From assembly GCA_014379705.1 (NCBI GenBank), contig JACMLI010000420.1, forward strand, positions 1-30,750: a stretch of DNA of 30,750 nt. The letters are read 5' to 3'. Position numbers and translations under genes: made by a program. A model generated the notes under the pieces. It was given only the letters and a program-made list of their open reading frames with translations, searched no databases and was not told where the DNA came from. Shown here one piece after another: positions 4,976 to 28,266 of the stretch; position 1 is the first letter of the stretch; each line of letters starts with the position of its first letter. This stretch comes from Gemmatimonadaceae bacterium. GTDB lineage: Bacteria > Gemmatimonadota > Gemmatimonadetes > Gemmatimonadales > Gemmatimonadaceae.

Positions 4976-6364
4976 GTGATGACTCATATGCAAACCAACT
5001 CGACCGCCGCGCCCGGCGCTCGGAGCGTGGGGAGGCGTGCCGCGACCACCGCGACGTTCCTCGCCGCGCTCGCCCTCGGCGCGTGCAGTGTGGATGAAGT
5101 GCTCGACGTGCCCGATCCGGACGTCGCCACGCCGGTCTCGGTGGCCGACAAGAGCGCGCTCCCCGTGATGCGCGCTGGTGCCATCGGCGACTTCGCCCGT
5201 GGCTTCCAGGGCGGTGGTGATGCCGAAGACGGCATCATCCAGAACGGCGGCCTGCTGGCGGATGAACTCGAGTGGGCGGAGACGTTCCCGACTCGCCGTG
5301 AGTTCGATTCGCGCAACATGCAAACGGTGAATGGCAACATCAACACGCTGATGCGTTTCGCGCAGCGCGGTCGTACGTCCGCGGCCCGCGCCGTGCGCGC
5401 GTACGACCAGTTCGATGCGGCCAATCCGGCGCGGGCAGAGATGCTCAACCTCGAGGGGACGATGATCACCCTCATCGCCGAGACATTCTGCTCGGGCACG
5501 CCGCTCTCCGAACTGAGTGACGACGGCTCGACGGTGTTCGGCGACCCACAGACCGGCACGCAGCTGTACAACACCGCGATCGCCAGCTTCGACAAGTCGC
5601 TGACCCAGGTGGGCTCAGCGGCGGGGACGGCGGCCGCCCAGCAGGCGAACTTCGCCCGTGTGGGTCGCGGCCGCGCGCTGCTCAACCTCGGTCGCTTCGC
5701 CGATGCCGCCGCCGCGGTTTCCGCGGTGCCAACGGCGTTCTCCTACGTGACCGAACACTCCGAGAACAGTGGACGCCAGAACAACGGCATCTTCGTGGTC
5801 ATGGCGGTCAACCGTCGTTTCTCGGTGGCTGACAGGGAAGGGATCAACGGCCTGCCGTTCCGCACGGAGATCGATCCTCGGACCGCGAACACGCGCGGCA
5901 CGGGAGCGGCCAACGTGGGCTTCGACGGCACGACCCCCTTGTTCCTTCCGAACAAGTACCCGAACCGTTCGGCCGGCGTTGTGGTGGCGAACGGGATCGA
6001 GGCCCGATTGATCGAGGCCGAGGCCGCGCTGCAGGCTGGCAACGCGGGCCAGTGGAAGACCATTCACGACGCGATCCGGGCAACGGTCGGCCTCTCGGCG
6101 CTCACGGACCCGGGCACCCCGGCGGCCCGCGTGGACCTGCACTTCAAGGAGCGCGCGTATTGGCTGTTCCTCACCGGCCACCGCCTGGGCGACATGCGCC
6201 GGCTGGCTCGCCAGTACCAGCGTGGGATCGAGACGGTCTTCCCGACGGGCGCTTTTCCGGCATCCAAGGGGGGCGGCGCCTATGGCGTCGACGTGAACTT
6301 CCCGGTGCCGTTCGACGAGCTGAACAACCCGAACTTCACGCAGTGCCTGGACCGGAATCCGTAG
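4976..6364 (+). CDS. SusD/RagB family outer-membrane lipoprotein
   Basis: Starts 2 bp after susC. Lipobox LALGA|C (Cys codon 5084-5086); ARLIEAEA and ERAYWLFLTGHRLGDMRR are typical SusD C-terminal motifs. The start could be 4976 (GTG), 4979 or 4988. Confidence 0.9.
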   Translation: MMTHMQTNSTAAPGARSVGRRAATTATFLAALALGACSVDEVLDVPDPDVATPVSVADKSALPVMRAGAIGDFARGFQGGGDAEDGIIQNGGLLADELEWAETFPTRREFDSRNMQTVNGNINTLMRFAQRGRTSAARAVRAYDQFDAANPARAEMLNLEGTMITLIAETFCSGTPLSELSDDGSTVFGDPQTGTQLYNTAIASFDKSLTQVGSAAGTAAAQQANFARVGRGRALLNLGRFADAAAAVSAVPTAFSYVTEHSENSGRQNNGIFVVMAVNRRFSVADREGINGLPFRTEIDPRTANTRGTGAANVGFDGTTPLFLPNKYPNRSAGVVVANGIEARLIEAEAALQAGNAGQWKTIHDAIRATVGLSALTDPGTPAARVDLHFKERAYWLFLTGHRLGDMRRLARQYQRGIETVFPTGAFPASKGGGAYGVDVNFPVPFDELNNPNFTQCLDRNP

Positions 6365-6472
6365 TGGGGGTCGGGTAGTGGGGTAGGCGGGTGGTCGGGT
6401 GGTCGCAGTAACGGCACTGGTCGCAAGCCCAGCGCTGTGCCACCCGACCACCTGACCACGCGACCACCCGAC
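6361..6472. repeat. Inverted pair of 8-bp degenerate tandem repeats (element A)
   Basis: Left arm GTAGTGGG..GTAGTGGG GTAGGCGG GTGGTCGG GTGGTCGC (6361-6406). Right arm CCGACCAC CTGACCAC GCGACCAC CCGAC (6444-6472), the reverse complement of the left units. Confidence 0.9.
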
Positions 6473-6487
6473 AGCGAAGCGCCTCGG

Positions 6488-6516
6488 TTGACACTGCTGT
6501 TCGCCCTATCTACTTT
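6488..6516 (+). promoter_or_regulatory. Sigma70-type promoter for the rplM-rpsI operon
   Basis: TTGACA (6488-6493), 17 bp spacer, TACTTT (6511-6516), 90 bp upstream of rplM. Confidence 0.8.
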
Positions 6517-6606
6517 GAGGGTCTGCCGTAAACCACGAATTCCGAGCACTTTGCGCGTTTGTCACCACGGCGGTGACCCTCGCGCCGCCATCAGGTTTTT
6601 TCCTTC

Positions 6607-7053
6607 ATGAAGACTTTCAGCGCGACCCCCGCCGACATCGATCGCCAGTGGTTCATCGTCGATGCCGATGGCATGGTGCTCGGCCGACTCGCCTCCGAGA
6701 TCGCGAAGATCCTCCGCGGCAAGCACAAGCCGATCTTCACGCCGCACATGGACACCGGTGACAACGTCATCGTCATCAACGCGTCCAAGGTGCGGGTGAC
6801 GGGAAAGAAGAGCGAGCAGAAGACGTATTTCTCGCACACCGGCTACATGGGCCACGAGCGCCTTACGCCCTACGCGTCGGTTGCCGCGAAGCACCCGGAG
6901 CGCGTGATCGAGAAGGCGGTGTTCGGCATGCTCCCCAAGTCCGCCCTCGCCCGCCAGGTGCTGCGCCTCAAGCTGCGCGTGTATGCCGGCAGCGAACATC
7001 CGCACGTGGCGCAGAAGCCCACCGCCCTGACCTTTGACATCAAGAGCGCTTAA
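6607..7053 (+). CDS. rplM: 50S ribosomal protein L13
   Basis: [42 protein letters not shown] is the L13 signature. Confidence 0.99.
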
Positions 7054-7055
7054 GC

Positions 7056-7448
7056 ATGGCTGAATCGCAGATCCGCGCCGTTGGCCGCCGCAAGGAGGCT
7101 GTCTGCCGCGTGTACATCAAGCCCGGGTCGGGCAAGTGGGACGTGAACGGTCGCACGTTAGGCGACTACTTCCCGCGCCCGTCGCTCGTCTCGTCGATCC
7201 AGCAGGCGTTCACCGCCACGGACTCGCTGGGCAAGTACGACGTCCGCGCGCGCGTCGAGGGGGGTGGCCTCACGGGGCAGGCCGGGGCGCTCCGCCTCGC
7301 CGTCGCCCGCTGCATGGTCGAGGTGGATGAGACCCATCGCCGCAAGCTGCGTGACATGGGCCTCCTCACCCGCGATGCCCGCGCCGTCGAGCGCAAGAAG
7401 CCCGGCCGCCCTGGCGCCCGCAAGCGCTTCCAGTTCTCCAAGCGCTAG
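7056..7448 (+). CDS. rpsI: 30S ribosomal protein S9
   Basis: GRRKEAVCRV, V.GGGLTGQAGA.R, LLTRDARAVERKKPG..GARKRFQFSKR. Confidence 0.99.
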   Translation: MAESQIRAVGRRKEAVCRVYIKPGSGKWDVNGRTLGDYFPRPSLVSSIQQAFTATDSLGKYDVRARVEGGGLTGQAGALRLAVARCMVEVDETHRRKLRDMGLLTRDARAVERKKPGRPGARKRFQFSKR

Positions 7449-7454
7449 CCCTTC

Positions 7455-7485
7455 CCCGGGACAGCACTGCTGTCCCGGGTTTGTT
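7455..7485 (+). terminator. Intrinsic terminator/attenuator hairpin after rpsI
   Basis: CCCGGGACAGC-ACT-GCTGTCCCGGG (perfect 11-bp stem, 7455-7479) followed by TTTGTT. Confidence 0.7.
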
Positions 7486-7492
7486 GATCTCT

Positions 7493-7524
7493 CTGCACGC
7501 CCGCACGCCTGTACGCCCGTCCGT
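7493..7524. repeat. Orphan 8-bp degenerate tandem repeat
   Basis: CTGCACGC CCGCACGC CTGTACGC CCGTCCGT. Confidence 0.7.
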
Positions 7525-7540
7525 CTGTTCTCAACTCTCA

Positions 7541-7621
7541 CGCGTCCCGAGTCGCCTCGGGTGCCGGCCCAGCCGGTCGATGGCGGCAACGACGGACGCG
7601 GTGGCCCAACCCGACAAGGAG
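7541..7621 (+). promoter_or_regulatory. Putative rpsB (S2) autoregulatory leader RNA
   Basis: CGCGTCC (7541-7547) pairs with GGACGCG (7594-7600). GGGT (7559-7562) and ACCC (7609-7612) lie just before the AAGGAG RBS, resembling the GGGU/ACCC pairing described for S2 leaders. Confidence 0.55.
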
Positions 7622-7625
7622 CATC

Positions 7626-8543
7626 ATGGCCGCACCAACCCTCGAGCAGTTGCTGGAAGCCGGCGTCCACTTCGGGCACCAGACCCGTCGCTGGAACCCG
7701 AAGATGCGCCGCTTCATTTTTGCGGAGCGCAACGGGATCCACATCATCGACCTGCAGAAGACCCTCAAGCAGATCGAGACGGCGCAGGAGTTCGTGCGCC
7801 AGACCGTCCTCCGTGGCGAAAACGTCCTCTTTGTCTGCACCAAGCGCCAGGTCTCGGCCATCGTCAAGGCCGAAGCCGATCGCGCCGGTGCGCTCCACGT
7901 CACCGAGCGCTGGCTCGGCGGCCTGCTCACCAACTTCGGCACCGTCAAGAAGCAGACGCGTCGCCTCAAGGAGCTCGAGGCGGGCTCCGAAGCTGGTGGT
8001 GAATTCGAGAACTACACCAAGAAGGAACAGCTCCTCCTCACGCGGCAGCGCGACAAGCTGGCCAAGAACCTCTCGGGCATCAAGAACATGACGCGCCTCC
8101 CGGGCCTCATGTTCGTGATCGACGCCAAGAAGGAGCGCATCGCGGTCTCCGAAGCCAACAAGCTCGGCATCCCGATCGTGGCCATCTGCGACACGAACTC
8201 CGATCCCGACCTGATCACGGTGCCGATCGCCGGCAACGACGACGCGATCCGCTCGGTCGAGCTGATCACGAAGTTCGTCGGCGAAGTCATCGCCGAGGCG
8301 CGTCGCGAGGCCCCGATCAAGGCCGTCGAGGAAGAAGCCGAGGAGAGCACGTATTCGTCCGATCGTGGGCTCGAGCCCACGGGTGATGACGAACGTCGCC
8401 GTCGCCGCCGTCCGCGTCGCCGTCGCGCCAAGCCCGAGGCGATTGCCGCACGGCTCAAGACGCCTGGTGAAGCCGGAGCCGAAGGCGTCGAGGGTGCCGA
8501 AGGGGCGGATGCCGGCGGCGACGAGGTCGCCGAAGCCGAGTAG
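7626..8543 (+). CDS. rpsB: 30S ribosomal protein S2 with a long charged C-terminal tail
   Basis: LLEAGVHFGHQTRRWNPKM..FIFAERNGIHIIDL, RWLGGLLTN, PIAGNDDAIRS; AAGGAG RBS. Confidence 0.99.
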   Translation: MAAPTLEQLLEAGVHFGHQTRRWNPKMRRFIFAERNGIHIIDLQKTLKQIETAQEFVRQTVLRGENVLFVCTKRQVSAIVKAEADRAGALHVTERWLGGLLTNFGTVKKQTRRLKELEAGSEAGGEFENYTKKEQLLLTRQRDKLAKNLSGIKNMTRLPGLMFVIDAKKERIAVSEANKLGIPIVAICDTNSDPDLITVPIAGNDDAIRSVELITKFVGEVIAEARREAPIKAVEEEAEESTYSSDRGLEPTGDDERRRRRRPRRRRAKPEAIAARLKTPGEAGAEGVEGAEGADAGGDEVAEAE

Positions 8544-8633
8544 ATGACGTTAGGCGCGGGGCCCACTGGCGGCGCCCCGCGCGGACCACGGGAGCGACGG
8601 CCCACCGGAGCCCCGTCCTGAACGCAGGACCCC

Positions 8634-8664
8634 GAACGCCGCCGGCCACCCGCCGGCGGCGTTC
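8634..8664 (+). other. Strong hairpin in the rpsB-tsf intercistronic region
   Basis: GAACGCCGCCGGC-CACCC-GCCGGCGGCGTTC, a perfect 13-bp stem with no U-tract. Confidence 0.7.
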
Positions 8665-8688
8665 TCACAACACGCAAGGAACCTGACG

Positions 8689-9579
8689 ATGGCGATCACG
8701 GCAAAGGACGTAGCAGACCTCCGCGCGCGCACGGGCGCCGGCATGATGGATTGCAAGAAGGCCCTCGAAGAAGCCGATGGCGATATCACCCGGGCGATCG
8801 AGATCCTCCGCACCAAGGGGATCACGAAGGCCGAGAAGCGGGCCGGGCGCTCTGCCTCCGAAGGCCGCATCGTGGTCAAGCTCGCCGACCACGGGCAGAC
8901 CGCATCGATCGTCGAGGTGAACTCGGAGACCGACTTCGTCGCCCGCAACGACGAATTCGGCACCGTGGCGCACTCGCTCGCAGAGCACGTCTTCGCCGAC
9001 AGCGCCCTCGACTCCGCCGTGCATAACGCGGCCGAGAGCACGCTCCTCGGCCAGGCGTTCCACAATGACGCGTCGCAGACCGTGGGCGACGTCGTGAAGG
9101 CCGCGTCAGCCAGGACCGGTGAAAACGTCGTGCTCCGCCGCTTCGCCCGCTTTGCCACCGACGGCGTCATCGGCCACTACGTGCACTTCAACGGCAAGGT
9201 CGCCGCCGTCGTCGACGTGACGGGGGCCAACAACGACGCCGCGCGTGAGCTGGCCAAGTCGGTCGCCGAGCACATCGCGGCCGGCGTGCCGCGCGTGCCC
9301 TATGGCGTCACCCGCGACGACGTGCCGAAGGCCTTCGTCGACAAGGAGCGCGAGATCTTCGCCGCCCAGGCCAAGGAGTCGGGCAAGCCGGACAACATCA
9401 TCGCCAAGATGGTGGAAGGGCAGGTGAACAAGCTCTACGCCGAGGCCGCGCTGATGGAGCAGGAGTGGGTGCGTGACCCGAACATCCGCATCCGGCAGCT
9501 GGTCGAGCAGAAGTCGAAGGAGGGCGGCGCTCCGCTGGCGATTCGGAGGTTTGTGCGATACCAGATGGGGGAGGAATAG
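8689..9579 (+). CDS. tsf: Translation elongation factor Ts
   Basis: V.DLRARTGAGMMDCKKAL.EA.GD, EVNSETDFVARN, GENVVLRRFARF, RRFVRYQMGE. Confidence 0.99.
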   Translation: MAITAKDVADLRARTGAGMMDCKKALEEADGDITRAIEILRTKGITKAEKRAGRSASEGRIVVKLADHGQTASIVEVNSETDFVARNDEFGTVAHSLAEHVFADSALDSAVHNAAESTLLGQAFHNDASQTVGDVVKAASARTGENVVLRRFARFATDGVIGHYVHFNGKVAAVVDVTGANNDAARELAKSVAEHIAAGVPRVPYGVTRDDVPKAFVDKEREIFAAQAKESGKPDNIIAKMVEGQVNKLYAEAALMEQEWVRDPNIRIRQLVEQKSKEGGAPLAIRRFVRYQMGEE

Positions 9580-9718
9580 ACGGGATGGACGAGATAGACG
9601 AGATAGACGGGATGGACGAAATCAAGGAGTGCAGGGCGCACGGGTCTCATGACTTGCGCGTACGGCGCTACGAGGGTTAGGCTCGCACGCAATCGACTAT
9701 CTCGTCCATCTCGTCCAC
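9576..9718. repeat. Inverted pair of 9-bp degenerate tandem repeats (element B)
   Basis: Left arm ATAGACGGG ATGGACGAG ATAGACGAG ATAGACGGG ATGGACGAA (9576-9620). Right arm GACTAT CTCGTCCAT CTCGTCCAC (9695-9718). Confidence 0.9.
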
Positions 9719-9727
9719 TCGCCCCGA

Positions 9728-10441
9728 ATGTCCGACCTGCCCTACCAACGCATCCTGCTCAAGCTCTCCGGTGAAGCGCTCGCCGGTGACAAGGGCTTTG
9801 GATACGATTTCGAGCGGGTCGCCCAGTTCGCCGACGAGATCAAGACGGTCGTCGAGATGGGCGTCGGGGTCGGCCTCGTCATCGGGGGCGGGAACATGGT
9901 GCGTGGCACGCAGCTCGCCGCGCTCGGCATGGATCGGGTGGCGGCGGACTACATGGGCATGCTCGGCACCGTCATCAACGCCCTGGCACTCCAGGACACG
10001 CTCGAGAAGAAGGGCCTCGACACGCGGGTGATGACGGCGATCCGCATGGAGGAACTCGCCGAGCCGTACATCCGGCGGCGGGCCCTGCGCCATTTCGAGA
10101 AGGGGCGCATCGTGGTGTTTGCCGCCGGCACGGGTAACCCGTATTTCTCCACCGATACGGCCGCCGCCCTCCGCGCGATCCAGATCAAGGCCGACGTCAT
10201 CATCAAGGCCACGTCGGTCGACGGCGTGTACAGCGCCGATCCCAAGAAGGACCCCACCGCGACGCGTTACGAACAGATCTCCTACCGCGACGTCATGCTC
10301 GAGGAACTCGGGGTGATGGACCAGACGGCAGTCACGCTCTGCAAGGAGAACAAGCTGCCGCTGATCGTCCTCAACATTCACGAACCAGGCGCTGTCGCGC
10401 GCGCGGTGCGCGGCGAGCGCGTGGGAACCATGGTACGATGA
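9728..10441 (+). CDS. pyrH: Uridylate kinase
   Basis: [60 protein letters not shown]. Confidence 0.99.
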
Positions 10442-10989
10442 GCATCGCCAACATCCTCAAGGACGCGAAGGCCCACATGGACAAGGCCTTCGAAAGCACC
10501 AGGCACGAGTTCTCCTCGATCCGCTCGGGCAAGGCCACGACGAGCATGCTCGACACCGTGCGCGTCGAGATGTACGGGAGCCACATGTCGCTCAACCAGG
10601 TGGCGTCCGTCGCGGCACCCGAGCCCCGACTCCTCGTCGTGACCCCCTTCGACAAGGGGCAGATGAAGGCGGTGGAAAAGGCGATCCGTGAGTCGGACCT
10701 CGGGCTCGATCCGTCGGTCCAGGGGGCGATCATTCGCGTGCCCCTGCCGTCGATGAACGAGCAGCGCCGCAAGGACCTCGCGAAGATCATCCACAAGTTC
10801 GCCGAGGAAGGTCGCATTGCGGTGCGTCACTGGCGCACGGAAGCGCGCGCCGGCTTCAAGAAGCTCGAGGGCGTCTCCGAGGACGACGTGAAGCACGCGG
10901 AAAAGGACCTGCAGAAGCTCCATGACGACTGCATTGCGCGGATCGACGCCGCAATGAAGGCGAAGGAAGCCGAGATCATGGAGGTCTGA
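10438..10989 (+). CDS. frr: Ribosome recycling factor
   Basis: IRSGKA....LD.V.VE.YG, LNQVASV..PEPR.L.V.PFDK, IRVPLP.MNE.RRKDL; ATGA overlap with pyrH. Confidence 0.99.
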
Positions 10990-10992
10990 CCC

Positions 10993-11850
10993 ATCGGCGA
11001 ACTGGCGCGCCGAATCGCGGTCGCGGTCGTCGGCATTCCGCTCGTCATCGGGCTCGTCTACCTCGGCGAGCTCCCGTTGGCGCTGCTCCTCGGGTTGCTC
11101 GGTGGACTCGGTGCGTGGGAGCTCTACCGCATGGCGCGGCAGCTCGGCATCGAGGCCATGGACGTCGTCGGTATCGCGATCGCGGCCGCGATCCCGCTCT
11201 ACGCTGCACTCGATCGTTTGGGTGTGCTGCAGAGCCCCGCCGCGATCGCCGCCGTGGTGTTCATTGCGCTGCTCGGGATGAGCCTCTGGGCGCGCGGCGT
11301 CGGGGGACGCCCCCTCGAGTCGGTGGCCGTGACCGCGTTCGGAGCCGTGTACGCCGGTGGGATGCTCACCTTCGGCTTCCTCCTCCGGCACCATCGCTTC
11401 GCCGTGACCGCCGAAGCGGGGACGGCCCTCGTCCTCTTCCCGATCGTGCTCACCTGGGCGTCCGACATCGGCGCATACTTCGTGGGCCGCGCCATCGGCA
11501 AGGCGAAGCTGATGCCGGCCATCAGCCCCGGAAAGACGCGTGCCGGCGCCGTGGGTGCGCTGGTGGTCACCGTGCTCGCAGCGCTGGCATACAACACGTG
11601 GGTGCTCCGACCGATGGCGCAACTGACCCTGGCTCCGATGATCGTCGTGATCTTCGGCTTGGTGGTGAGTGTCGCCGCGCAAGTCGGGGACCTGTTTGAA
11701 TCGATGCTCAAGCGGGAAGCGGGCGTGAAGGACAGTTCGCACCTGTTGCCCGGCCACGGTGGGATCCTGGACCGCCTCGATTCGATCTACTTCGTGCTGC
11801 CCATCGCGTACCTGGTCCTCAACCGATTGCTCGTCGCCGCTCCGCGATGA
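10993..11850 (+). CDS. cdsA: Phosphatidate cytidylyltransferase; start uncertain (ATC 10993 proposed)
   Basis: TWASDIGAYFVGR.IGK.KL.P.ISPGKT..G, GDLFESMLKREAGVKDSSHLLPGHGGILDRLDS. CdsA-like N-terminal helix ELARRIAVAVVGIPLVIGLVYLG lies upstream of the first TTG (11077), and GGAGGT (10980-10985) sits 7 nt before ATC. Confidence 0.93.
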   Translation: MGELARRIAVAVVGIPLVIGLVYLGELPLALLLGLLGGLGAWELYRMARQLGIEAMDVVGIAIAAAIPLYAALDRLGVLQSPAAIAAVVFIALLGMSLWARGVGGRPLESVAVTAFGAVYAGGMLTFGFLLRHHRFAVTAEAGTALVLFPIVLTWASDIGAYFVGRAIGKAKLMPAISPGKTRAGAVGALVVTVLAALAYNTWVLRPMAQLTLAPMIVVIFGLVVSVAAQVGDLFESMLKREAGVKDSSHLLPGHGGILDRLDSIYFVLPIAYLVLNRLLVAAPR

Positions 11851-14562: not shown

Positions 14563-14566
14563 CTGC

Positions 14567-16216: not shown

Positions 16217-16228
16217 CGTGTCGACGCC

Positions 16229-16257
16229 TTTACTTGTGAGGTGACGACCAGTAAGTT
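16229..16257 (+). promoter_or_regulatory. Candidate sigma70 promoter for rpsO
   Basis: TTTACT (16229-16234), 17 bp spacer, TAAGTT (16252-16257), in an AT-rich divergent intergenic region. Confidence 0.45.
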
Positions 16258-16315
16258 CTTATGCTTCAAACAACTTAGCTAAGAATGGGCGAGGGTCGCC
16301 CGGAGAATATACACC

Positions 16316-16576: not shown

Positions 16577-16596
16577 TCTCCATTCCTAGGTAGTCC

Positions 16597-20233: not shown

Positions 20234-20257
20234 TTCCACCACCCGGACCTAACGAAC

Positions 20258-21373
20258 ATGCGCATCGGCGTACCGAAGGAGATCAAGACCAACGAGAACC
20301 GCATCGCCCTCGTCCCGGCGGGCGCCGAGGCCCTCGTGGCAGCGGGCCACCAGGTGGTGGTCGAGAAGGGCGGCGGTGATGGGAGTGGGTTCACCGACCA
20401 GGATTACATCTCGGTCGGCGCGTCCGTCGAGCCAAGCGTGGACGCGGTATGGGCCGGCGCAGACATGATCATCAAGGTGAAGGAGCCGATCGGGGTCGAG
20501 TGGCCCCGGATGAAGCGTGGCCAGGTGGTCTTCACGTACTTCCACTTCGCCGCCGATGAGCAGCTGACGCGCGCACACATGGCATCGGGCGCGACGTGCA
20601 TCGCATACGAGACGGTGGAACTCCCGCCGAGCGACCTGCCGCTGTTGATCCCGATGTCGGAAGTCGCCGGACGGATGGCGGTGCAGGAAGGGGCCAAGTA
20701 CCTGGAGAAGCTCTACGGCGGCCGTGGCGTGCTCCTCGGTGGCGTTCCGGGTGTCGCACCGGCCAAGGTCGTGATCCTTGGCGGCGGCATCGTCGGCATC
20801 AACGCCGCGAAGATGGCGGCGGGCATGGGCGCCAAGGTCGTGATCCTCGACATCTCGCTCGACCGCCTGCGCTACCTCTCGGACGTGATGCCCGCGAACG
20901 TTCAGCTGATCTACTCCAATCGCCACAACATCCTGGAGCAGATCGCGACGGCGGACCTGGTGGTGGGCGGCGTGCTGATCCCGGGCGCGAAGGCCCCGCG
21001 GCTGATCCGGCGCGAGGACCTCAAGCGGATGCAACCGGGCTCGGTGATCGTGGACGTGGCGATCGACCAGGGCGGGTGCGTGGAGACGATCAAGGCGACG
21101 ACGCACGAGAACCCGACGTACGTGGTCGATGGCGTGATCCACTATGGCGTGGCGAACATGCCGGGCGGCGTGCCGCGCACGTCGACGCTCGCCCTGACCA
21201 ACGCGACGCTGCCGTACGCGATGCAGCTGGCCAACAAGGGCTGGAAGCAGGCGCTGCGCGACAACCCGGCGCTGCTCAAGGGCCTGAACATGTTCGACGG
21301 CAAGGTGACGTATCCGGGCGTGGCGGAGGCGTTCGGGATGGAGTATCACGAGCCGGCGCAGTTCCTCGCGTAG
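20258..21373 (+). CDS. ald: Alanine dehydrogenase
   Basis: MRIGVPKEIKTNENRIAL.P, IKVKEP, LFTY-like VFTYFHFAA, PMSEVAGR, GGGIVG.NAAKMA.GMGA, VDVAIDQGGC, HYGVANMPG. Confidence 0.98.
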   Translation: MRIGVPKEIKTNENRIALVPAGAEALVAAGHQVVVEKGGGDGSGFTDQDYISVGASVEPSVDAVWAGADMIIKVKEPIGVEWPRMKRGQVVFTYFHFAADEQLTRAHMASGATCIAYETVELPPSDLPLLIPMSEVAGRMAVQEGAKYLEKLYGGRGVLLGGVPGVAPAKVVILGGGIVGINAAKMAAGMGAKVVILDISLDRLRYLSDVMPANVQLIYSNRHNILEQIATADLVVGGVLIPGAKAPRLIRREDLKRMQPGSVIVDVAIDQGGCVETIKATTHENPTYVVDGVIHYGVANMPGGVPRTSTLALTNATLPYAMQLANKGWKQALRDNPALLKGLNMFDGKVTYPGVAEAFGMEYHEPAQFLA

Positions 21374-21544
21374 GGCGGGCGCACGGGGCAAGTGAGGCGT
21401 GTGGGGCGTGTAAGGCGTGGCGCGCGGGGCCTTCTGCTCGGCGCGCCGCTGCGTTGATGCAGTCCTCGTGTTGACCTGCCTGACCGCAAGGCCCCTCGGG
21501 CACCCCGTACGTCTCACACGCCCTATACGCCTCACACGCCCTCA
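21370..21544. repeat. Inverted pair of 9-bp degenerate tandem repeats (element C)
   Basis: Left arm GTAGGGCGG..GTGAGGCGT GTGGGGCGT GTAAGGCGT (21370-21418). Right arm ACGTCTCAC ACGCCCTAT ACGCCTCAC ACGCCCTCA (21509-21544). Inner pair GGGGCCTT (21426-21433) / AAGGCCCC (21488-21495). Confidence 0.9.
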
Positions 21545-21549
21545 GACAC

Positions 21550-21996
21550 ATGACCGTCCAGATCCTCCGCCTCCCCACCAACCCCGATCTTCCGCTCCCG
21601 GCCCGTCAAACCGCCCATTCCGCCGGCTACGACGTGTGCAGCGCGGAGCCCGACTTCACGCTGGCACCTAACGAGCGGCGCGCGGTGCCGACGGGCTTCG
21701 CGTTTGCGTTGCCCGCGGGGTTGGAGATGCAGGTGCGGCCGCGCTCCGGGCTCGCGCTCAAGCACGGCATCAGCGTGCCCAATGCGCCGGGCACCATCGA
21801 TCCGGACTATCGCGGGGAGCTCAAGGTGATCCTCATGAACCTCGGGGCCGAGCCGGTGCTCGTTAGGCGCGGGGATCGGATCGCCCAGCTCGTCTTCGCC
21901 CGCTTCGAAACCCCCGACCTCGCCGAGTCCGGGAGCCTCGACGCCACCGATCGCGGCGCGGGGGGCTTCGGCAGCACCGGCCTGCGGACATCCTGA
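21550..21996 (+). CDS. dut: dUTP diphosphatase
   Basis: [44 protein letters not shown] (dUTPase motifs 1-5). Confidence 0.98.
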
Positions 21997-22158
21997 CCGA
22001 GCCTGCAGCGCACCCCTGAACGGTTAGCAGGCTGGCCGTTCGGTCATGACGACGGGCTCTACCGTGAGACTTTTTGACTCACCAGTCGTCTTCCATATGC
22101 GCACGAGGTCGCCCCGCGTGAAGTCGACCGAGCGCCTAGGTTGTGATTTGGCAACGCC

Positions 22159-22187
22159 TTGCACCACGTCATGTGCAGTGCTAGCTT
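22159..22187 (+). promoter_or_regulatory. Candidate sigma70 promoter for the mre-mrd operon
   Basis: TTGCAC (22159-22164), 17 bp spacer, TAGCTT (22182-22187) with an extended -10 TG at 22179-22180. Confidence 0.5.
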
Positions 22188-22254
22188 CGAGGCGATTGAC
22201 CCCGGCACGCTCTCAACTCACCGGCGCTTCACGAGCGCCAGGGTGTTCAAATAC

Positions 22255-23292
22255 ATGCGTTGGCCCTTTCCCAAGGGTGGCAAGCTCTTTCCCGCGAATG
22301 CAATCGCCGTTGATCTTGGCACGGCGAACACCCTGATCTACGTGAAGGGAGAAGGCATCGTCCTGAACGAGCCTTCCGTCGTCGCCCTGGATCGCGAGAC
22401 GAAGAAGGTGAAGGGCGTCGGGCTCGAGGCAAAGCGGATGCTGGGTCGCACTCCCGATGGCATCATCGCCGTCCGGCCCATGAAGGACGGCGTCATCGCC
22501 GACTTCGACGTCACCGAGAAGATGCTCCGGTACTTCCTGGAGCTGATCATCAAGAACCGGATGTTCAAGATCAAGCCGCGCGTGATCGTCTGCGTGCCGT
22601 CCGGGATCACCGAGGTCGAACGGCGCGCCGTGCGCGACTCCGCCCTCGGCGCGGGCGCCAAGGAAGTCTTCATGGTCGCCGAGCCCATGGCGGCGGCCAT
22701 TGGCGTCGGTTTGCCGATCGAGACGCCGACCGGGAACATGGTCATCGACATCGGCGGCGGCACCACCGAGATCGCCGTCATCGCGCTCTCGGGCATTGTC
22801 TCCGACACGTCGATCCGCACCGCGGGCGATGAGCTCGACACGGCGATCGTGCAGTTCATGCGCAAGAACTACAATCTCCTCATCGGCGAGCCGACGGCGG
22901 AGCAGATCAAGATCCATGTCGGCTCGGCGGCGCCGCTCGCCGAAGAGCGGGAGATGGACGTGAAGGGACGCGACCTCGTGTCGGGCATCCCGAAGATCGT
23001 GCACATCCACTCCACGGAGATCCGCGAGGCGATCCAGGAGCCGATCCAGCAGATCGTGGACGCCGTTCGTCGCGCCCTCGAAATCACCCCGCCTGAGCTC
23101 GCGAGCGACATTGTCGACCGCGGCATCGTCATGACGGGGGGCGGAGCCCTGATCCGTGGCCTCGACGTGATCCTGCAGCACGAGACCGGCCTTCCGATTC
23201 ACGTCGACGAGGATCCGCTCACCTGCGTCGTGCGCGGCGTCGGGCGCATCCTGGACGACGAACAGAAGTACTTCTCCGTCCTTTCTTCCTGA
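22255..23292 (+). CDS. mreB: Rod shape-determining protein MreB
   Basis: [65 protein letters not shown]. The start is ATG 22255 or GTG 22243, not 22159. Confidence 0.99.
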
Positions 23293-23301
23293 CCGCGGCG
23301 T

Positions 23302-24393
23302 ATGGCGCGTCCGGCACGGGCGAGCTCACGGGTCGACGCGGCGCTGCTGGTCGCCTGCACCCTGCTCGCCCTCCTCGCCATCGTCCTTCCCACGCCGACG
23401 CGGGACGCGATTGCCGGGGTTCTCCAGCGCACCTTCGCCGCCCCGGTTTTCGCGCTGCAGCTGCGGAGCGAACGGGCGCGCACCGCGCTGGCGGAACGTG
23501 AGCAGGTCGCGGCGCGCGTGGATTCCCTCGCGCTCCGCGTCGTCCAGCTGGGGCAGCTCGAAGCCGAGAACCTGCGGCTCCGCCAGCTCCTTGCTCTGGG
23601 CCACCGGGTGCAGCGCGGGTTCGTGCCGGCCGAAGGGCTGCATGGGCAGGGGATCGGCGAGAGCCATGCGCTCCTCCTGACCGTCGGCGCGAAGGCTGGC
23701 GTGGTCCCGCGCTCCGCGGTCGTGGCCCCGCAAGGCGTCGTTGGACTCGTCACGTCGGTCGGCAACACCACCAGCCAGGCGATCCTGTGGTCGCACCCCG
23801 ACTTTCGCGTCTCCGCCATGTCGGCCGATGGCGCCACGTTCGGCATCGTCACGCCGCACCTGAGTGGCAACGACGAGGCCTGCCGCGGGGCAGGGGAAGC
23901 GGCCTGCGCGGGTCCGGAGCGCATGCTCCTCGAGATGCGTGGAGTGGCCTTTCGCGATCCCCTCAAGCCGGGAACGCTGATCGCCTCGTCAGGCCTCGGC
24001 GGCGTGTTCCCACGCGGCATCCTGATTGGCACCGTGATCGGTGAACTCAAGACGACGGAGCAGTGGTCGCGCACGTACCTCCTCCGTCCATCGGTGCGCC
24101 CCCAGGACGTGTCGAACGTCATGGTGCTGTCACCCGTCCTTGTCACCGACAACCTCGCCGGCATGTGGGACACGGCGGGCGCGGGCGCGGCTGTCGTCGC
24201 GCGGGTCGTGGCGGCGGGTGACTCCCTGGCTCGTCGAGCCACCGCGGATTCCGCGGCCAGGCAGCGGGTGATTGACTCAACGGCCGCGGCACGTCTCGCC
24301 GCCGACAGTGTCGCCGCCGCTGCTGGGGTTGCCCCCCGTGACACGACGCGTGTCGCACCCGGAGTGCGGCGCGACACCGCCCGCCGCCCATGA
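23302..24393 (+). CDS. mreC: Rod shape-determining protein MreC with a low-complexity C-terminal tail
   Basis: Position after mreB; N-terminal TM, coiled coil (LEAENLRLRQLL), VV...GVVG.V, G.LIASSGLGGVFPRGILIG.V. Confidence 0.95.
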   Translation: MARPARASSRVDAALLVACTLLALLAIVLPTPTRDAIAGVLQRTFAAPVFALQLRSERARTALAEREQVAARVDSLALRVVQLGQLEAENLRLRQLLALGHRVQRGFVPAEGLHGQGIGESHALLLTVGAKAGVVPRSAVVAPQGVVGLVTSVGNTTSQAILWSHPDFRVSAMSADGATFGIVTPHLSGNDEACRGAGEAACAGPERMLLEMRGVAFRDPLKPGTLIASSGLGGVFPRGILIGTVIGELKTTEQWSRTYLLRPSVRPQDVSNVMVLSPVLVTDNLAGMWDTAGAGAAVVARVVAAGDSLARRATADSAARQRVIDSTAAARLAADSVAAAAGVAPRDTTRVAPGVRRDTARRP

Positions 24394-24878
24394 GTTGGCA
24401 GAAAGTAGCGCGCACGGCGCTGCTCTTCGCTTTCCTCGTCGCGCTGCACTTTACCGTGCGGCCGCTGCTTTCGTGGCGGTCCCAGCCGGATTTCCTCATC
24501 GTGGCGATCCTGCTGGCCGCAGTTCGGGTGCGTCCCGGCGTCGCCGCGCTGCTCGGGTTCGGTACGGGGCTCCTGGCCGACGCGCTGGCCCCGGCCACCT
24601 TCGGCGTGACGGCATTTGCGCTCTCGGTCATCGGCTTCACTGCGTCGTGGCTCAAGGCGGTATTCTTCTCTGACAACGTCGCGTTGCACGCCTTCTTCTT
24701 TTTCGTGGGGAAGTGGGCGTTCGACGTCCTGTTCATCCTGCTCGAGCGGCAACGCACGTTCCTCGAGATGGCCGCGCAGGTGGCGTTGTGGTCCCCCCTC
24801 TCGGCGGCGCAGACCGCGCTGGTCGGGCTGGTGGTGCTGATGCTCTTCCGCGGCATGCTGGAGGCGAACCAGACATGA
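24390..24878 (+). CDS. mreD: Rod shape-determining protein MreD
   Basis: Hydrophobic 162 aa with PDFL and GF..GLLADAL; lies between mreC and mrdA with ATGA overlaps. Confidence 0.92.
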   Translation: MSWQKVARTALLFAFLVALHFTVRPLLSWRSQPDFLIVAILLAAVRVRPGVAALLGFGTGLLADALAPATFGVTAFALSVIGFTASWLKAVFFSDNVALHAFFFFVGKWAFDVLFILLERQRTFLEMAAQVALWSPLSAAQTALVGLVVLMLFRGMLEANQT

Positions 24879-26643
24879 GCTTCCACCCAAACGATGTACA
24901 GCGCCGCGGGCGCGTGGCCGCCACGGTGGTCCTGCTTACCGTCGGCGTGCTCGCCTCGGCGTTCTTCCGCGCGCAGGTGCTCAACTCGGCCCGGTATCGC
25001 CTCTCGTCGGAGCGCAACCGGCTGCGCGAGGTCCCGATCCCCGCGGCGCGCGGGATCATCTACGACCGGCATGGCGAGGTGATCGCCGAAAACGTGCCGG
25101 GGTACTCGGTGTCGCTGCTCGGACCGTCGGCGGACTCGTTGCGGGCCACGCTGACGCGCCTGACGAGCATCATCGCGTTCTCCCCCGAGGACATCGACGA
25201 GGCCGTGCGTCGCTATCGGCGGGAGCCCAACCGGCCCACGGTGGTGCTGGCCGACGCGTCATTCGACCAGGTGTCGGTGCTCGAGGAGCACCGCGTGGAG
25301 TTCCCGAGCCTGATCATTCAATCGGCACCGAAGCGCTACTACCCGGATGGCCCGGCCGTCGCCGCGTTCACGGGCTATACCGGCGAGATCTCCGAGAAGG
25401 AGCTGACGCTGCCGCAATTCGAGGGCTACAAGAGCGGCATGGAACTGGGAAGGGCGGGCTCGAAAAGCAGTACGAGACGGAACTGCGCGGACGCGAAGGG
25501 AGCCGTTTCGTCGAAGTCGATGCGCGCGGACGCGTCGTGCGCGACCAGGCCGACCGTCCGGACGTGCTCCCCGTGGCAGGGCAGGCACTGCGCACGAACA
25601 TCGACCTCGACCTGCAACGCTTCGTGTCGAACTACCTCGGCGACACCTTGGTTGCCGGAGTGGTCGCGCTCGACCCGACGACCGGCGCCGTGCTGGCGCT
25701 GCACAGCTCCCCGTCCTTCGATCCGAACCGATTCATTGGCGGCGTGCCGACCAGTTACTACAAGATGCTGCACGACGACCCCCGGCAACCTCTGTACAAC
25801 AAGGCGATGCAGGGCCGGTATCCGCCGGCGTCGACGTTCAAGCTGGCGACTGCAGCCATCGCGCTCCAGGAAGGGATTGCCACGTTCGACACGCACATGG
25901 AGCGCACGTGCAACGGGGGCTACCAGTTCGGGTCGCGCTACTGGAAATGCTGGGACAAGAAGGGCCACGGCAACCTGAACCTCACGCAGGCGATCGCGAA
26001 GTCGTGCGATACGTACTTCTACCAGCTCGGGCTCCGCATCACGTTGTCGCGACTCCTCGCGGGGGGCGTGTCGCTCAAGATGAACGAGCGCTCCGGGATC
26101 GACCTGCCGAATGAAGTGGCCCCCCGGTGGCCCGATGCGCCGGCCTACCTCGACCGGGTGTTCGGCAAGGGGAAGTGGTCCAATGGCGAGACGCTCAACC
26201 TCTCGATCGGCCAGGGCTACAATACCCAAACCGTGCTGAACATGGCGCGCTTCTACACGGCGCTGGCCACCGACGGACGTTCCGCGCGCCCCGAAGTGGT
26301 CGCGCGCTCGCCGGAGCGCACGCAGATCATGAACCTCACCCCGCAGCAACTGGCCGGGCTTCGCGCGGCGATGGGTGACGTGGTGTCGGGGCGCGGCACG
26401 GCAGGGAGCGCGGCGATCGAGGGGGTGCAGCTGGCAGGCAAGACCGGCACGGCGCAGAACGAGACGGCCAAGGACCACGCCTGGTTCGTCGGCTTCGCGC
26501 CGCAGGAGGCGCCGAAGATCGTGGTCGCCGTGGTCCTGTGGCAGGGCGAGCACGGCTACGCGGCGGCGCGCATCGCGTCGAAGGTCATCTCCCACTACCT
26601 CAAGCGGCCGGCGATCGAGCCGGTGAACGTGGAGGGGGATTGA
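24875..26643 (+). CDS. mrdA: Penicillin-binding protein 2 with a one-base frameshift near 25448-25451
   Basis: The N-half (IPAARGIIYDRHG..IAEN, RYYP) is in the frame of ORF 24713..25978. The C-half (GLEKQYE..LRG, STFK, KSCD, GKTGTAQ, HAWF) is in the -1 frame, ORF 25537..26643. One extra base at CTGGG^AAG restores LGKGGLEKQY and a 589-aa protein. Confidence 0.93.
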
Positions 26644-27902
26644 TCCGGAAAGTCGTCGCCGACTATCCGTTGGCGATCCTCGCGCTACTCCTCTCGGCAT
26701 ACGGCATCGCGGTCGTCTACTCGGCCGGACAGACGGACGCGCGCGTCGCGACGGACCTCGGGGCCTACCAGCGCCAGCTGGCGTGGTTCGGCGTTGCGGT
26801 GGTCGGCGCCTTGGTGGTCTCCCGGGCTTCGGTGCGATTCCTCGAGTGGGCCACACTTCCGGCGTACGCGCTCTCGATCACGCTGCTCGTCGTCACGCTC
26901 TTCTTCGGTTCAGGGGCGGGCACGGCGGCGAGCGTCAAGGGGTGGCTCACGATCGGCGGCATCCGGCTGGGTCAGCCGGCCGAGTTGGCCAAGGTCGCCG
27001 TGGTCCTGATGCTGGCTCGCCTGCTGTCCTCGCGACGCGACCCGCCCAAGTCCCTGGTGGAGCTCTGGCAACCCGCGCTGGCCGTGGCTCTTCCCTGGCT
27101 CCTGGTCATGGCACAGCCGGACCTCGGGACGGGGATGGTGTTCATCGGCATCTTCTTCGCGATGCTCTTCTGGGCCGGCGTTTCGGGCCCTCTGCTGCTC
27201 CTGCTCGCGAGTCCCGCCGTGTCGCTCGTCCTCGCCTTCAGCACGGGGCTCTGGGGCGCGTGGTTCCTGATCCTCATCGCCGTCGTGCTCTGGTACAAGC
27301 CGTACGTGGTCGAGGGGGTCGTCCTGATCGTGGCCAACGTCGTGATGGGCGTGGCGGCACCGATCCTGTGGGAGAAGCTCAATCCGTACCAGCAGCGTCG
27401 CCTTCTCGTCTTCCTCGACCCGTCGCAGGATCCCAGGGCCAGCGGATATCACGTGATCCAGAGCCAGATCGCCATTGGGTCCGGCGGACTGACCGGGCGA
27501 GGGTACCTCGACGGGACGCAGAAGCGTGGCGCGTTCCTTCCGGAACAAACGACGGACTTCATCTTTGCCGTCGTGGGAGAGGAACTCGGGTTCCTTGGCG
27601 TGAGCCTCGCGCTGATGCTGTTCCTGTTCCTGTTCCTTCGCGTGATCCGGGTGGCGTCGCGGGCCAGCGACAGCTTCAGTTCGCTCGTCGCGTTCGGGCT
27701 CCTCGGCAGCTGGTTCGTGCACGTGGTCGAGAACATCGGGATGACGCTCAACCTGATGCCGATCACCGGCATTCCGCTCCCGTTCTTCTCGTACGGCGGA
27801 TCGGCGATGCTGGCGTGCTGGCTCGCGGTGGGGATCCTGATCCGGATCTCCGCGGAGGGGCGTGGGTCGGCGGACGCGTTACCCATCGGGTTTCGGGGGT
27901 AG
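26640..27902 (+). CDS. rodA: Rod shape-determining protein RodA (SEDS glycosyltransferase)
   Basis: QPAELAK, QPDLGT, YQQRR...FLDP..DP..SGYHVIQSQIAIGSGG..G.G, LPEQTTDFIFAV.GEE, NIGM...LMPITGIPLPFFSYGGS. TTG start at 26640 after GGAGGG, overlapping the mrdA stop. Confidence 0.97.
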   Translation: MIRKVVADYPLAILALLLSAYGIAVVYSAGQTDARVATDLGAYQRQLAWFGVAVVGALVVSRASVRFLEWATLPAYALSITLLVVTLFFGSGAGTAASVKGWLTIGGIRLGQPAELAKVAVVLMLARLLSSRRDPPKSLVELWQPALAVALPWLLVMAQPDLGTGMVFIGIFFAMLFWAGVSGPLLLLLASPAVSLVLAFSTGLWGAWFLILIAVVLWYKPYVVEGVVLIVANVVMGVAAPILWEKLNPYQQRRLLVFLDPSQDPRASGYHVIQSQIAIGSGGLTGRGYLDGTQKRGAFLPEQTTDFIFAVVGEELGFLGVSLALMLFLFLFLRVIRVASRASDSFSSLVAFGLLGSWFVHVVENIGMTLNLMPITGIPLPFFSYGGSAMLACWLAVGILIRISAEGRGSADALPIGFRG

Positions 27903-27911
27903 GTCGAGCTT

Positions 27912-28266
27912 GGGCTGGGGCGCCGCTGGGGGCTGGGGCCTGCGGCCGGCTTAACGCAGAGGCGCAGGGGACGCTGAGGCGCAGAGGACGGCCACTCGCG
28001 TTCACCAGAACTCTTCGTCGCGAGGGGAACTCACGAGCTTTTCTTTTAACTGGCTGCGGGAGCTGGGTACCTGAGCGCCAATCCCGCCTGAGGCCCAGCA
28101 CCCAGCCACAAAAAGAAAGAGACGTCTGGCGGCCGCGCCGTCTGCTTCGGGTCCGAAGGGAGACCAAAGCAGTTGCAGTCCTCTGCGCCTCACCGTCTTC
28201 TGCGACCCCTGCGTTAAGCCGGCCGCAGGTCCCAGCATCCAGCCCCCAGCATCCAGCCCCCGGCAA
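27912..28266. repeat. Nested inverted-repeat element (element D), possibly a non-autonomous mobile relic
   Basis: Arms of about 58 bp (27932-27989 / 28178-28236) contain perfect 21-bp and 15-bp blocks. They are flanked by 7-bp GGGCTGG/CCAGCMY repeats and enclose a second imperfect inverted repeat (28050-28077 / 28094-28118). Confidence 0.9.

Follow-up and report, generated by a model that had tools for sequence, protein, structure and literature searches.

In this study, we describe four periodic inverted-repeat elements, A to D, in the window (the whole stretch of 30,750 nucleotides of a Gemmatimonadaceae contig that was analysed), and on balance we lean towards reading them as gene-less members of a single genome-wide family of foldback DNA elements. 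Architecture, copy number, placement, units shared with cassettes that carry a gene, turnover from one species to another and the lack of strand-specific RNA selection were all observed directly. The original prediction had left open whether such repeats are footprints of a small mobile element family or mRNA processing and stability structures. Our results favour the view that these are rapidly turning-over elements at the level of DNA, rather than a conserved RNA device, because the junctions differ between congeners, no sense-strand bias is seen and no RNase III was found in the class.

Each of the four elements has a tandem arm rich in G, followed by a unique spacer and by a C-rich arm complementary to the first, and both the coordinates (given here without strand) and the shared design that had first been read from the sequence hold. 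In element A, the G-rich arm (6361-6405) is built of 8-nt units of the GGTCGGGT / GTAGTGGG type and starts on the TAG stop codon (6362-6364) of a SusD-like gene; a genome-unique spacer with a small hairpin of its own (6406-6439) is followed by a C-rich arm of CCACCCGA units (6440-6472) that pairs with the left arm. The G-rich arm of element B (9576-9619; 9-nt units GATAGACGA / GATGGACGA) starts at the TAG stop codon of tsf (9577-9579), and behind a genome-unique, internally structured spacer (9620-9696) the ATCTCGTCC units of its C-rich arm (9697-9721) end 6 nt 5' of the pyrH start. Element C carries 9-nt units GTGAGGCGT / GTGGGGCGT with an 18-nt double period in its G-rich arm (21370-21419), where degenerate units come first, from the ald stop codon TAG (21371-21373), and the regular core spans 21385-21419; its genome-unique spacer (21420-21507) contains two internal hairpins, and its C-rich arm (21508-21542) ends 7 nt 5' of the dut start. 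Element D is nested, with an outer pair of arms around an inner pair. The outer G-rich arm (27912-27945; GGGCTGG-type 7-mers with a 7/14-nt period) lies 9 nt after the rodA stop codon TAG (27900-27902) and is matched by an outer C-rich arm of CCCAGCATCCAGCC, again with a 7/14-nt period (28231-28265). The inner arms (G-rich, 27954-27990, with ACGCAGAGG / GCGCAGGGG units of 8-9 nt and a 17-nt double period; C-rich, 28178-28204) enclose a core (27991-28177) that is genome-unique and internally paired, and in which no remnant of a four-helix-bundle gene was detectable.

TRF and repeat scans found at least three tandem copies of a 7-9-nt unit in each element, with a complementary array nearby on the opposite strand. 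All four fold more stably than dinucleotide shuffles (z-scores of -5.0, -6.6, -4.3 and -11.1 for A, B, C and D), and an Rfam scan of the window at the gathering score gave no matches. They lie between protein genes, none of them in a helix loop of 23S rRNA, and, as had been claimed, all are located 3' of a TAG stop; this stop is at the ancestral position, since orthologues end at the same codon. A half-element was overlooked in the first reading: a solo C-rich array of GCACGCCC / GTACGCCC (7492-7528; reverse complement of the GGGCGTRC type), which has no G-rich partner and is located 3' of a plain hairpin and T-run after rpsI.

The source genome is a fragmented MAG (758 contigs, 74% complete), in which genes were called for this analysis by a crude, GC3-based procedure. 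The search for further copies that the original prediction had asked for was amply rewarded, as a scan that finds A to D returned 242 periodic inverted pairs, 215 of them G-first and 7 C-first. The genome thus contains at least 215 elements of this design, which fall into roughly a dozen unit families that recur and are spread over some 160 contigs. The arms have units of 7-9 nt, and some of 16 nt, with a median of 4 units per arm (interquartile range 3-4.6) and a median gap of 46 nt between paired arrays, and the spacer is unique in 151 of 180 elements. Neighbouring units within an arm are 75% alike, versus 70% for mirrored units, and the lengths of paired arms correlate weakly (rho 0.29). 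A separate, true REP-like family of 36 nt is also present. The unit sequences of A to D had been taken as unrelated to one another; they are not private, however, each belonging to a genome-wide family, with 39 loci for the GGTCGGGT family of element A, 56 for that of element B and 18 for the GGGCGTGTG family of element C. Their uniform polarity relative to transcription, put forward at the time as an argument, is automatic because a hairpin that is G-rich at the 5' side and C-rich at the 3' side reads identically on both strands. The non-trivial fact of polarity is the ratio of 215 G-first to 7 C-first elements.

Nearly all elements (205/215) are intergenic, and they lie a median of 4 nt from the adjoining 3' gene end, with 120 out of 218 within 5 nt of the stop or overlapping it. 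The median distance to the adjoining 5' gene end is 70 nt, so that, like the Xanthomonas arrays discussed below, they are nearer to the end of the upstream gene than to the start of the downstream one. Gaps between convergent genes are enriched 1.5-fold for elements, and 27 elements sit between divergent genes. A to D themselves all follow a TAG stop codon; genome-wide, where TAG is found at 115 of 218 adjoining stops (53%) versus a background of 38%, the enrichment is modest and the case for anchoring weak.

The link to genes is provided by repeat-armed cassettes. This genome has seven matches to the four-helix-bundle family (TIGR02436) and two GxxExxY genes (TIGR04256). Four full-length or frameshifted four-helix-bundle genes, among them the frameshifted remnant on contig C364, are enclosed by periodic arms on both sides, as is one of the two GxxExxY genes, on C522; longer copies thus do enclose genes of the kinds that the original prediction had named. 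The remaining three four-helix-bundle matches are cut by contig ends, with one arm left on C291 and C538 and none visible on C653, and two of these three look like a single gene divided over two contigs. Among the relatives, arms were recognised by eye at about 23 of the 29 loci with a four-helix-bundle gene and at 8 of the 15 with a GxxExxY gene, where an automatic arm criterion flagged 16 of the 29; loci from the unpublished genome G013 were excluded. The units of the cassettes recur at 56, 34, 16, 24, 2, 26 and 3 loci, versus 0-6 for shuffled units. The unit family of element B is also that of the arms enclosing the four-helix-bundle gene of contig C594. The inner arms of element D are CRCRGAGG-like, as are all GxxExxY arms, and so have the unit type found around the C522 gene and around the GxxExxY genes of relatives, the likeness between D and the C522 cassette being limited to the arm units. 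The outer arms of D can be compared with the GGGGCTR arms that flank four-helix-bundle genes in three relatives.

These observations support the notion of a generic family of gene-less versions of such cassettes, and A to D are gene-less relatives of repeat-armed cassettes rather than full members. A profile built from 34 four-helix-bundle sequences and searched in 113 spacers of at least 45 nt matched the three intact genes and the frameshifted one; the remaining 109 spacers gave no match, and controls showed similar noise. No remnants were found in the spacers of B, C and D, and the 34-nt spacer of A falls under the cut. The one documented case of gradual gene decay, on C364, does not make decay the general origin of gene-less copies. 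On C444, the cassette with a four-helix-bundle gene keeps its synteny throughout the genus, so that no mobility of gene-bearing copies is visible over such a period. Our literature search found no paper tying gene-less arrays to TIGR02436 or GxxExxY cassettes.

Between species, the junctions change quickly. At tsf|pyrH, six congeners have other units or plain hairpins, and in two other genera the junction has a length of 10-20 nt. Two congeners have an ald|dut junction of about 25 nt; at rodA|accD, two have 50-71 nt and a third has a different 8-mer. A search for nine of the unit families in 400 kb of the closest complete congener, with about 22 loci expected, found none of them. None of ten orthologous junctions is empty in this closest complete relative, however: GC-rich hairpin-like sequence is retained there, and at least two junctions have degenerate arms of a related unit. 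This indicates that many insertions are old, and that the contrast between species is partly one of arm regularity rather than presence. Public reads, in the form of short metagenome contigs of low depth, gave no filled or empty joints at the elements. One contig from the metagenome of another study is identical to positions 9672-9904 (the spacer and right arm of B and the pyrH start), and this independent match means that B is not an assembly artefact, a concern raised at the outset.

In the explanation that we propose, the elements consist of inverted arms of about 3-5 tandem units of 7-9 nt (sometimes 16 nt) around a short, locus-specific centre, and the loop of larger members holds a gene of the four-helix-bundle family (TIGR02436 / PF05635, the '23S rRNA intervening-sequence protein') or of the GxxExxY family. 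They may behave as selfish or near-neutral DNA that persists where insertion is tolerated, directly 3' of stops and 5' of the start signals of the next gene. Each arm would be altered by unit slippage and local duplication, with slippage as the likely engine, and would be renewed or replaced much faster than the flanking genes change. Transcribed elements would fold into imperfect hairpins, whose effect on RNA may be at most incidental, as intercistronic or 3'-end hairpins hindering exonucleases. Several observations go against this explanation. The flanks of 33 aligned copies show no target-site duplication, no transposase, RAYT (PF01797) or further enzyme of mobility turned up in the assembled 74% of the genome, and no movement was seen. 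Many insertions are old and the C444 cassette is syntenic, as described above. Unique spacers are ill-fitting for a simple copy-and-paste of whole elements, and the concentration of elements behind genes and between convergent ones would fit a selected role in mRNA stability as well.

Such a role is the most serious rival, although we consider it rather unlikely. The hairpins would then be selected RNA elements that shield upstream 3' ends from exonucleases or set cistron stoichiometry in the manner of REP and BIME sequences, with the cassettes a side issue. Besides the close placement behind stops and the preference for convergent gaps, the very stable folds and the hairpin-like sequence retained at the matching junctions of the closest relative would fit this, and the Xanthomonas heptamer arrays are likewise biased to upstream ORF ends (PMC4692102). 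However, neither stability nor G-U pairing prefers the sense strand: folding of sense versus antisense comes out at 58 versus 58, and G-U pairs at 439 versus 419, whole elements having about 50 predicted pairs on average, spacer structure included. The unit variation of A/G on the left and C/T on the right, which had been thought to preserve pairing through G-U, therefore gives no evidence of selection at the RNA level. Furthermore, 27 elements are located between divergent genes, empty junctions occur in further congeners and genera, and selection for a mere hairpin would not require units to be shared throughout the genome, which also has ordinary hairpin-plus-T terminators. The elements themselves do not fit the picture of intrinsic terminators, as U-tracts are lacking (a T-run of at least four within 15 nt 3' of the hairpin in 4/218). 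RNase III (TIGR02191, PF14622, PF00636) was found neither in this genome nor in 45 genomes of its class, in contrast to 14 of 15 genomes from other classes of the phylum, and a literature search on Gemmatimonadetes and RNase III returned nothing on the absence of the enzyme. Without detectable RNase III and U-tracts, the hairpins probably serve neither excision like that of intervening sequences nor intrinsic termination.

A bolder version of the DNA-level reading, which we put forward tentatively and consider rather unlikely, sees in cassettes and gene-less hairpins the two sides of a novel autonomous / non-autonomous system. In it, each small cargo protein would recognise arrays made of its own unit word and, without a classical transposase, would write, renew or copy them at hairpin-forming sites behind genes; the candidate actors would be the PD-(D/E)XK-like GxxExxY nuclease and the ring-forming four-helix-bundle nucleic-acid binder. 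This would account for loci sharing only a unit word and no centre, for the arm type following the cargo family, and for the abundance of regular arrays of nine families in this species, with at least 7 + 2 cargo matches in a 74%-complete genome, versus none in 400 kb of a sister species with 1 + 1.

Less probable still, the arms may be rows of putative sites for a multimeric nucleic-acid-binding protein, with a regulatory or packaging function. A pentameric four-helix-bundle protein could, for example, occupy some five units of a G-rich single strand, be it DNA or RNA, in which case gene-less copies would provide additional putative sites for proteins made elsewhere. The median of 4 units per arm is compatible with this, as are the Xanthomonas S23p homologue, cited as a homopentameric ring in PMC4990558, and the Geobacter paired octa- and heptanucleotide arrays interpreted as regulator sites (PMC2700814); arm type, moreover, follows the cargo family, CRCRGAGG-like for GxxExxY and other units for four-helix-bundle genes. 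However, the units differ between the sister proteins of C594 and C538, and between orthologous cassettes of this genome and a relative (G000 and G003), so that specificity would have to be loose. On a tree of the proteins, only close, syntenic orthologues have units in common, which points to co-inheritance rather than specificity, and the large GGTCGGGT, GGACTAGT and GGGATTC families are without a cassette in the assembled 74%.

G-quadruplex-forming regulatory repeats, as suggested for the Xanthomonas GGGAATC arrays, are a very improbable explanation: arms A and D do match the canonical motif of four G3 tracts, and related heptamers form quadruplexes in vitro (PMC4692102), but the motif occurs in 66 of 430 arms and in neither B nor C, and the large families GACGAGATR, GAAGCACGR and GGACTAGT have no G-tracts, so that the unit sequences largely refute it as a general explanation. 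Lastly, an artefact of a fragmented metagenome bin, suggested by the 758 contigs and by one relative whose contig breaks right at rodA|accD, can practically be dismissed, as the architecture recurs in independent near-complete genomes and on about 160 contigs here, part of B is matched exactly by another study, and arrays are not enriched at contig ends (97 observed versus about 134 expected).

To our knowledge, the short-period tandem repeats of 7-9 nt that are unusually common in many bacteria have no accepted explanation. Nor do we know of a function for the large four-helix-bundle '23S IVS protein' and GxxExxY families, the sole mechanism known to us for the class being excision of rRNA intervening sequences by RNase III. 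Here, one genome unites both, with hundreds of gene-less hairpins carrying the unit words of a few gene-bearing cassettes, and as arm type appears to follow the cargo family, it offers concrete protein-DNA pairs. Excision by RNase III is probably unable to operate in this bacterial class, which narrows the range of roles that hairpins can have there.

How do these elements relate to known systems? REP, BIME and REPIN sequences and MITEs such as the Correia elements of Neisseria are abundant intergenic palindromes behind genes, which are co-transcribed and able to alter mRNA fate, and Correia hairpins are substrates of RNase III. Whereas the copies of a REP or MITE all repeat one conserved sequence, the present elements share only a unit word, and both arm length and centre vary at every locus. 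A MITE was rejected for its unique spacers, in A to D as in most of the family, and for the absence of target-site duplications, and a REP or REPIN with a RAYT because the arms are unit arrays rather than one conserved palindrome of about 20-40 nt, and no PF01797 match was obtained. Closer in form are the foldback (FB) transposons of Drosophila, with long inverted arms of short tandem sub-repeats, unequal and variable arms, variable loops and mostly non-coding copies, a few of which carry genes. Sub-repeat arms, unequal arm lengths, variable loops and mostly non-coding copies are found here too, although FB elements are eukaryotic, much larger and without homology, so that the likeness is one of form only.

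The 23S rRNA intervening sequences, which RNase III excises, are the rRNA-resident form of the repeat-armed class. They share with it a long terminal stem with tandem units around a four-helix-bundle (S23p) gene, the existence of gene-less and decaying versions, and the proposal that they are selfish or once were mobile; in contrast, A to D are located between protein genes instead of in rRNA, carry no gene, and occur in a genome and class where the excising enzyme was not found. ORF-bearing intervening sequences are described for Coxiella burnetii, where tandem heptamers form the 28-bp terminal stem around the S23p gene, and, by citation in the same paper, for Leptospira and others (Warrier et al. 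2016, PMC4990558). Outside rRNA, inverted pairs of GGGAATC heptamer arrays are known from Xanthomonas campestris and X. citri (Rehm et al. 2015, PMC4692102), and paired tandem octa- and heptanucleotide 'sites' from Geobacter metallireducens (Aklujkar et al. 2009, PMC2700814). Both studies read the arrays as G-quadruplex elements or regulator binding sites and draw no link to cargo genes. Like the elements described here, these arrays have tandem 7-9-nt units facing each other on opposite strands across a variable gap, are about 90% intergenic and lie much nearer to the upstream gene end than to the next start, and the GGGATTC family of this genome has nearly the same word as Xanthomonas GGGAATC. 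Unlike them, a dozen unit families coexist here, most of which are unable to form G-quadruplexes. As such, the repeat-armed class has been noticed earlier but left unexplained, and A to D add members to a known kind.

Elements A (6361-6472), B (9576-9721), C (21370-21542) and D (27912-28265) are members, without a gene of their own, of a foldback family related to cassettes in which a four-helix-bundle (TIGR02436) or GxxExxY (TIGR04256) gene lies between inverted arms of tandem units. Reading the four stretches confirmed the build that the original prediction had given them, namely a G-rich degenerate tandem run, then a spacer, then the reverse complement of the first run as a C-rich one. Repeat tools independently recovered the arms as inverted pairs of 33-38 nt with 82-89% complementarity, and found tandem periods of 8, 9, 9/18, and 7/14 plus 17 in A to D. 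Single-strand folding gave z-scores against dinucleotide shuffles of -5.0, -6.6, -4.3 and -11.1, respectively, while Rfam gave no match at any of the four. The elements occupy the junctions of a SusD-like gene and rplM (A), tsf and pyrH (B), ald and dut (C), and rodA and accD (D). All four upstream proteins end on the same last residue as their orthologues, and therefore a native stop codon precedes each element and is not supplied by it.

Further periodic inverted repeats are plentiful in this genome (758 contigs, 5.04 Mb, 67.5% GC, rated 74% complete): searching for tandem arrays of period 5-24 with a reverse complement at most 700 nt away yielded 242 elements. Arms have a median length of 34 nt, or four units, and spacers one of 46 nt. 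The genome probably belongs to Gemmatimonadota, as a MAG of that phylum supplies the best named relative of its EF-Ts. The recurring unit families are GACGAGATR, GGTCGGGT, GGACTAGT, GGGATTC / GTGATTC, GAAGCACGR, GGGCGTGTR, ACGCAGAGG, the 16-mer GAGCGGGAGATACTGC, GGTGAAT and GTACTGG. Families GGACTAGT, GGACGAGT, GGACGGGT and GGTCGGGT are one or two changes apart and intergrade inside single arms. The units of A to D, described earlier as unrelated, each fall in such a genome-wide family and as such are not private to their elements. Nor is their shared polarity relative to transcription informative, since a hairpin with its G-rich arm 5’ (G-first) is G-first on either strand; the real asymmetry of the family is the near-lack of C-first hairpins (7, versus 215 G-first). 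A composite element at C111:3273-3423 has a left arm that shifts from GGACGGGT 8-mers to GACGAGATA 9-mers and a right arm of the GGTCGGGT family, resulting in a mismatch in every unit pair.

Judged by rough gene calls made from GC3 (3,735 genes), 205 of the 215 G-first elements are intergenic. The arm lies a median of 4 nt from the adjacent gene’s 3’ end (within 5 nt of the stop or overlapping it in 120 of 218 cases), and a median of 70 nt from an adjacent 5’ end. Gene contexts are co-directional in 96 cases, convergent in 49 and divergent in 27, against a background of 62/19/19%, which makes convergent gaps 1.5-fold enriched (p = 0.005). The proposed anchoring to TAG stops survives as a real but modest enrichment (53% of adjacent stops versus 38% genome-wide), due in part to units that themselves contain TAG. 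A run of at least four Ts follows only 4 of 218 hairpins, and ordinary hairpin-plus-T terminators do exist in this genome. One such terminator-like structure, consisting of a plain GC hairpin and a T-run, is located 3’ of rpsI at ~7455-7485; behind it, within the same stretch (7455-7528), comes a half-element, namely a solo array of C-rich 8-mers from the GGGCGTRC family that has no G-rich partner.

The link of such arms to four-helix-bundle and GxxExxY genes, which the original prediction had put forward, holds in this genome and in its relatives. Among the seven TIGR02436 matches here, four are enclosed by arms: those on C594 (GACGGGTG / GACGAGATG units, the family of element B), C444 (GAAGCACGR units), C59 (the 16-mer) and C364 (a frameshifted remnant with GGCAGAT units). 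The other three are cut by contig ends, with one arm each on C538 and C291 and none on C653; the C291 and C653 matches look like two halves of one gene split over contigs. A GxxExxY gene on C522 sits between ACGCAGAG-type arms, the same type as the inner arms of D, and a second, 180 nt downstream of the C111 composite element, lacks a right arm. Elsewhere in the genome, the cassette units recur at 56, 34, 16, 24, 2, 26 and 3 loci, versus 0-6 for shuffled units. In relatives, periodic inverted arms were recognised by eye at about 23 of 29 four-helix-bundle loci (at 16 by an automatic criterion), and another three of these loci are flanked by plain inverted repeats that are long; periodic arms are present at 8 of 15 GxxExxY loci. 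Since the armed GxxExxY loci of relatives all use a CRCRGAGG-like word (CACGAAGG, CGCGAAGG, CCGCAGAG, CACAGAGG, GCGCAGAT), cargo family and arm type seem to go together. Non-periodic inverted repeats of 28-65 nt also surround some of these genes (L040 and L060 in G014, L044 in G017, L076 in G015), and two G014 paralogues carry one common inverted repeat in a MITE-like manner.

Orthologous junctions differ between relatives. Short gaps are found in some congeners, at ald/dut (~25 nt in G003 and G005) and at rodA/accD (50 nt in G002, 71 nt in G005). In G004, the closest complete relative, none of the junctions paired with ten elements of this genome is empty (eight are 117-264 nt long, the other two 591 and 2,975 nt), and at least two of them, B and one on C541, carry degenerate GGACG-type arms; several insertions are therefore older than the split of the two species. 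At rodA/accD, G003 has a GGGTGAAC-type 8-mer hairpin, and the assembly of G001 breaks. At tsf/pyrH, G004 carries TAG followed by GGATGGAC / GGACGGGT 8-mers with a longer centre, G003 a small GAGCGGA hairpin, G005 a GGCAGGT hairpin, and G001, G002 and G006 plain hairpins; in two other genera these genes are 10-20 nt apart. A sediment metagenome contig that is ~95% identical over tsf stops matching at the last stop-codon base (9579/9580), beyond which 94 bases are unlike. What sets the present lineage apart is how abundant regular arrays are: the same detector finds 4.3 G-first elements per 100 kb here versus 0.25 in G004, and 0, 0.5, 1.3 and 1.5 in the more distant G008, G007, G022 and G021. 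Nine unit families were absent as regular arrays from 400 kb of G004, where ~22 loci were expected. Gene-bearing copies stay in place while their arms change, as the C444 cassette (C444:1440-1982), upstream of what is presumably a YchF-type GTPase gene, judged by one motif, is syntenic in all congeners examined (L050, L053, L054, L056, L057); four species have GMAGCACGR arms around it, those of G004 have decayed, and G003 has GGAGACG arms around the orthologous gene.

These data favour a DNA-level element, selfish or near-neutral, whose arms would evolve through slippage and which would be tolerated directly behind stop codons, the transcribed hairpin being at most an incidental 3’-end or intercistronic structure. 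The two arms of one element are not mirror images: adjacent units of an arm are 75% identical and mirrored units 70%, arm lengths correlate weakly (rho 0.29), and in some copies one arm counts 4 units and its partner 11, which fits lengthening and shortening through local slippage. A bolder reading, in which each cargo protein would write or renew the arrays built from its own unit word, would fit both the cargo-specific arm types and the contrast between this genome and its sister species. Copy-and-paste of whole elements is argued against by their unique centres, as 151 of 180 spacers match no other spacer and those of A to D match nothing else in the genome. What the remaining 29 have in common is another element, a REP-like hairpin of 36 nt (consensus near AACGACACGGGGCTCCGGCCTTCGCCGGAGCGACGA; at least 149 copies, many of them paired in tandem, for example C60:5067-5103 and C445:2419-2455), of which eight copies are nested in periodic elements and none lies in the window. 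An alignment of 33 copies shows no target duplication, and the genome yielded no RAYT gene.

A function at the RNA level fares less well. RNase III excision is the one mechanism established for this hairpin class, yet it is unlikely here because the gene was not found in the class: TIGR02191, PF14622 and PF00636 gave nothing in this genome or its near-complete congeners, TIGR02191 matched in 0 of 45 sampled genomes of the class (most 96-100% complete, three single-contig), and the two Pfam models gave nothing in the six of these checked, a result that holds for the genomes searched and is no proof of absence. RNase III is present in 14 of 15 sampled genomes of the phylum’s other classes. Selection for mRNA structure would predict that transition mismatches appear as G-U on the sense strand and as A-C on the antisense strand. 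In 118 elements with a single transcription direction fixed by neighbouring genes, the sense strand had the better fold in 58 and the poorer one in another 58, with 439 G-U pairs versus 419 on the other strand. Therefore, the A/G variation on the left and C/T on the right, previously read as preserving pairing through G-U, is simply a matter of transitions. A G3 quadruplex motif fits 15% of arms, and neither B nor C.

The hairpin class is already in print in pieces, as inverted heptamer arrays in Xanthomonas (PMC4692102), paired arrays in Geobacter (PMC2700814) and the Coxiella intervening sequence (PMC4990558). We found no paper connecting gene-less arrays with cassettes, nor one on the lack of RNase III in this class. 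To these the window adds a genome whose many unit families are well quantified, the argument from symmetry and the strand test, GxxExxY-type arms nested within element D, and a class that apparently lacks RNase III. Through the cassettes, the family is related to rRNA intervening sequences: that of the Coxiella 23S gene encloses an S23p gene in a terminal stem of 28 bp, which contains tandem GACAGAT heptamers and is cut at the first repeat by RNase III (PMC4990558), and its stem of tandem heptamers around a gene is the same build as that of the repeat-armed cassettes.
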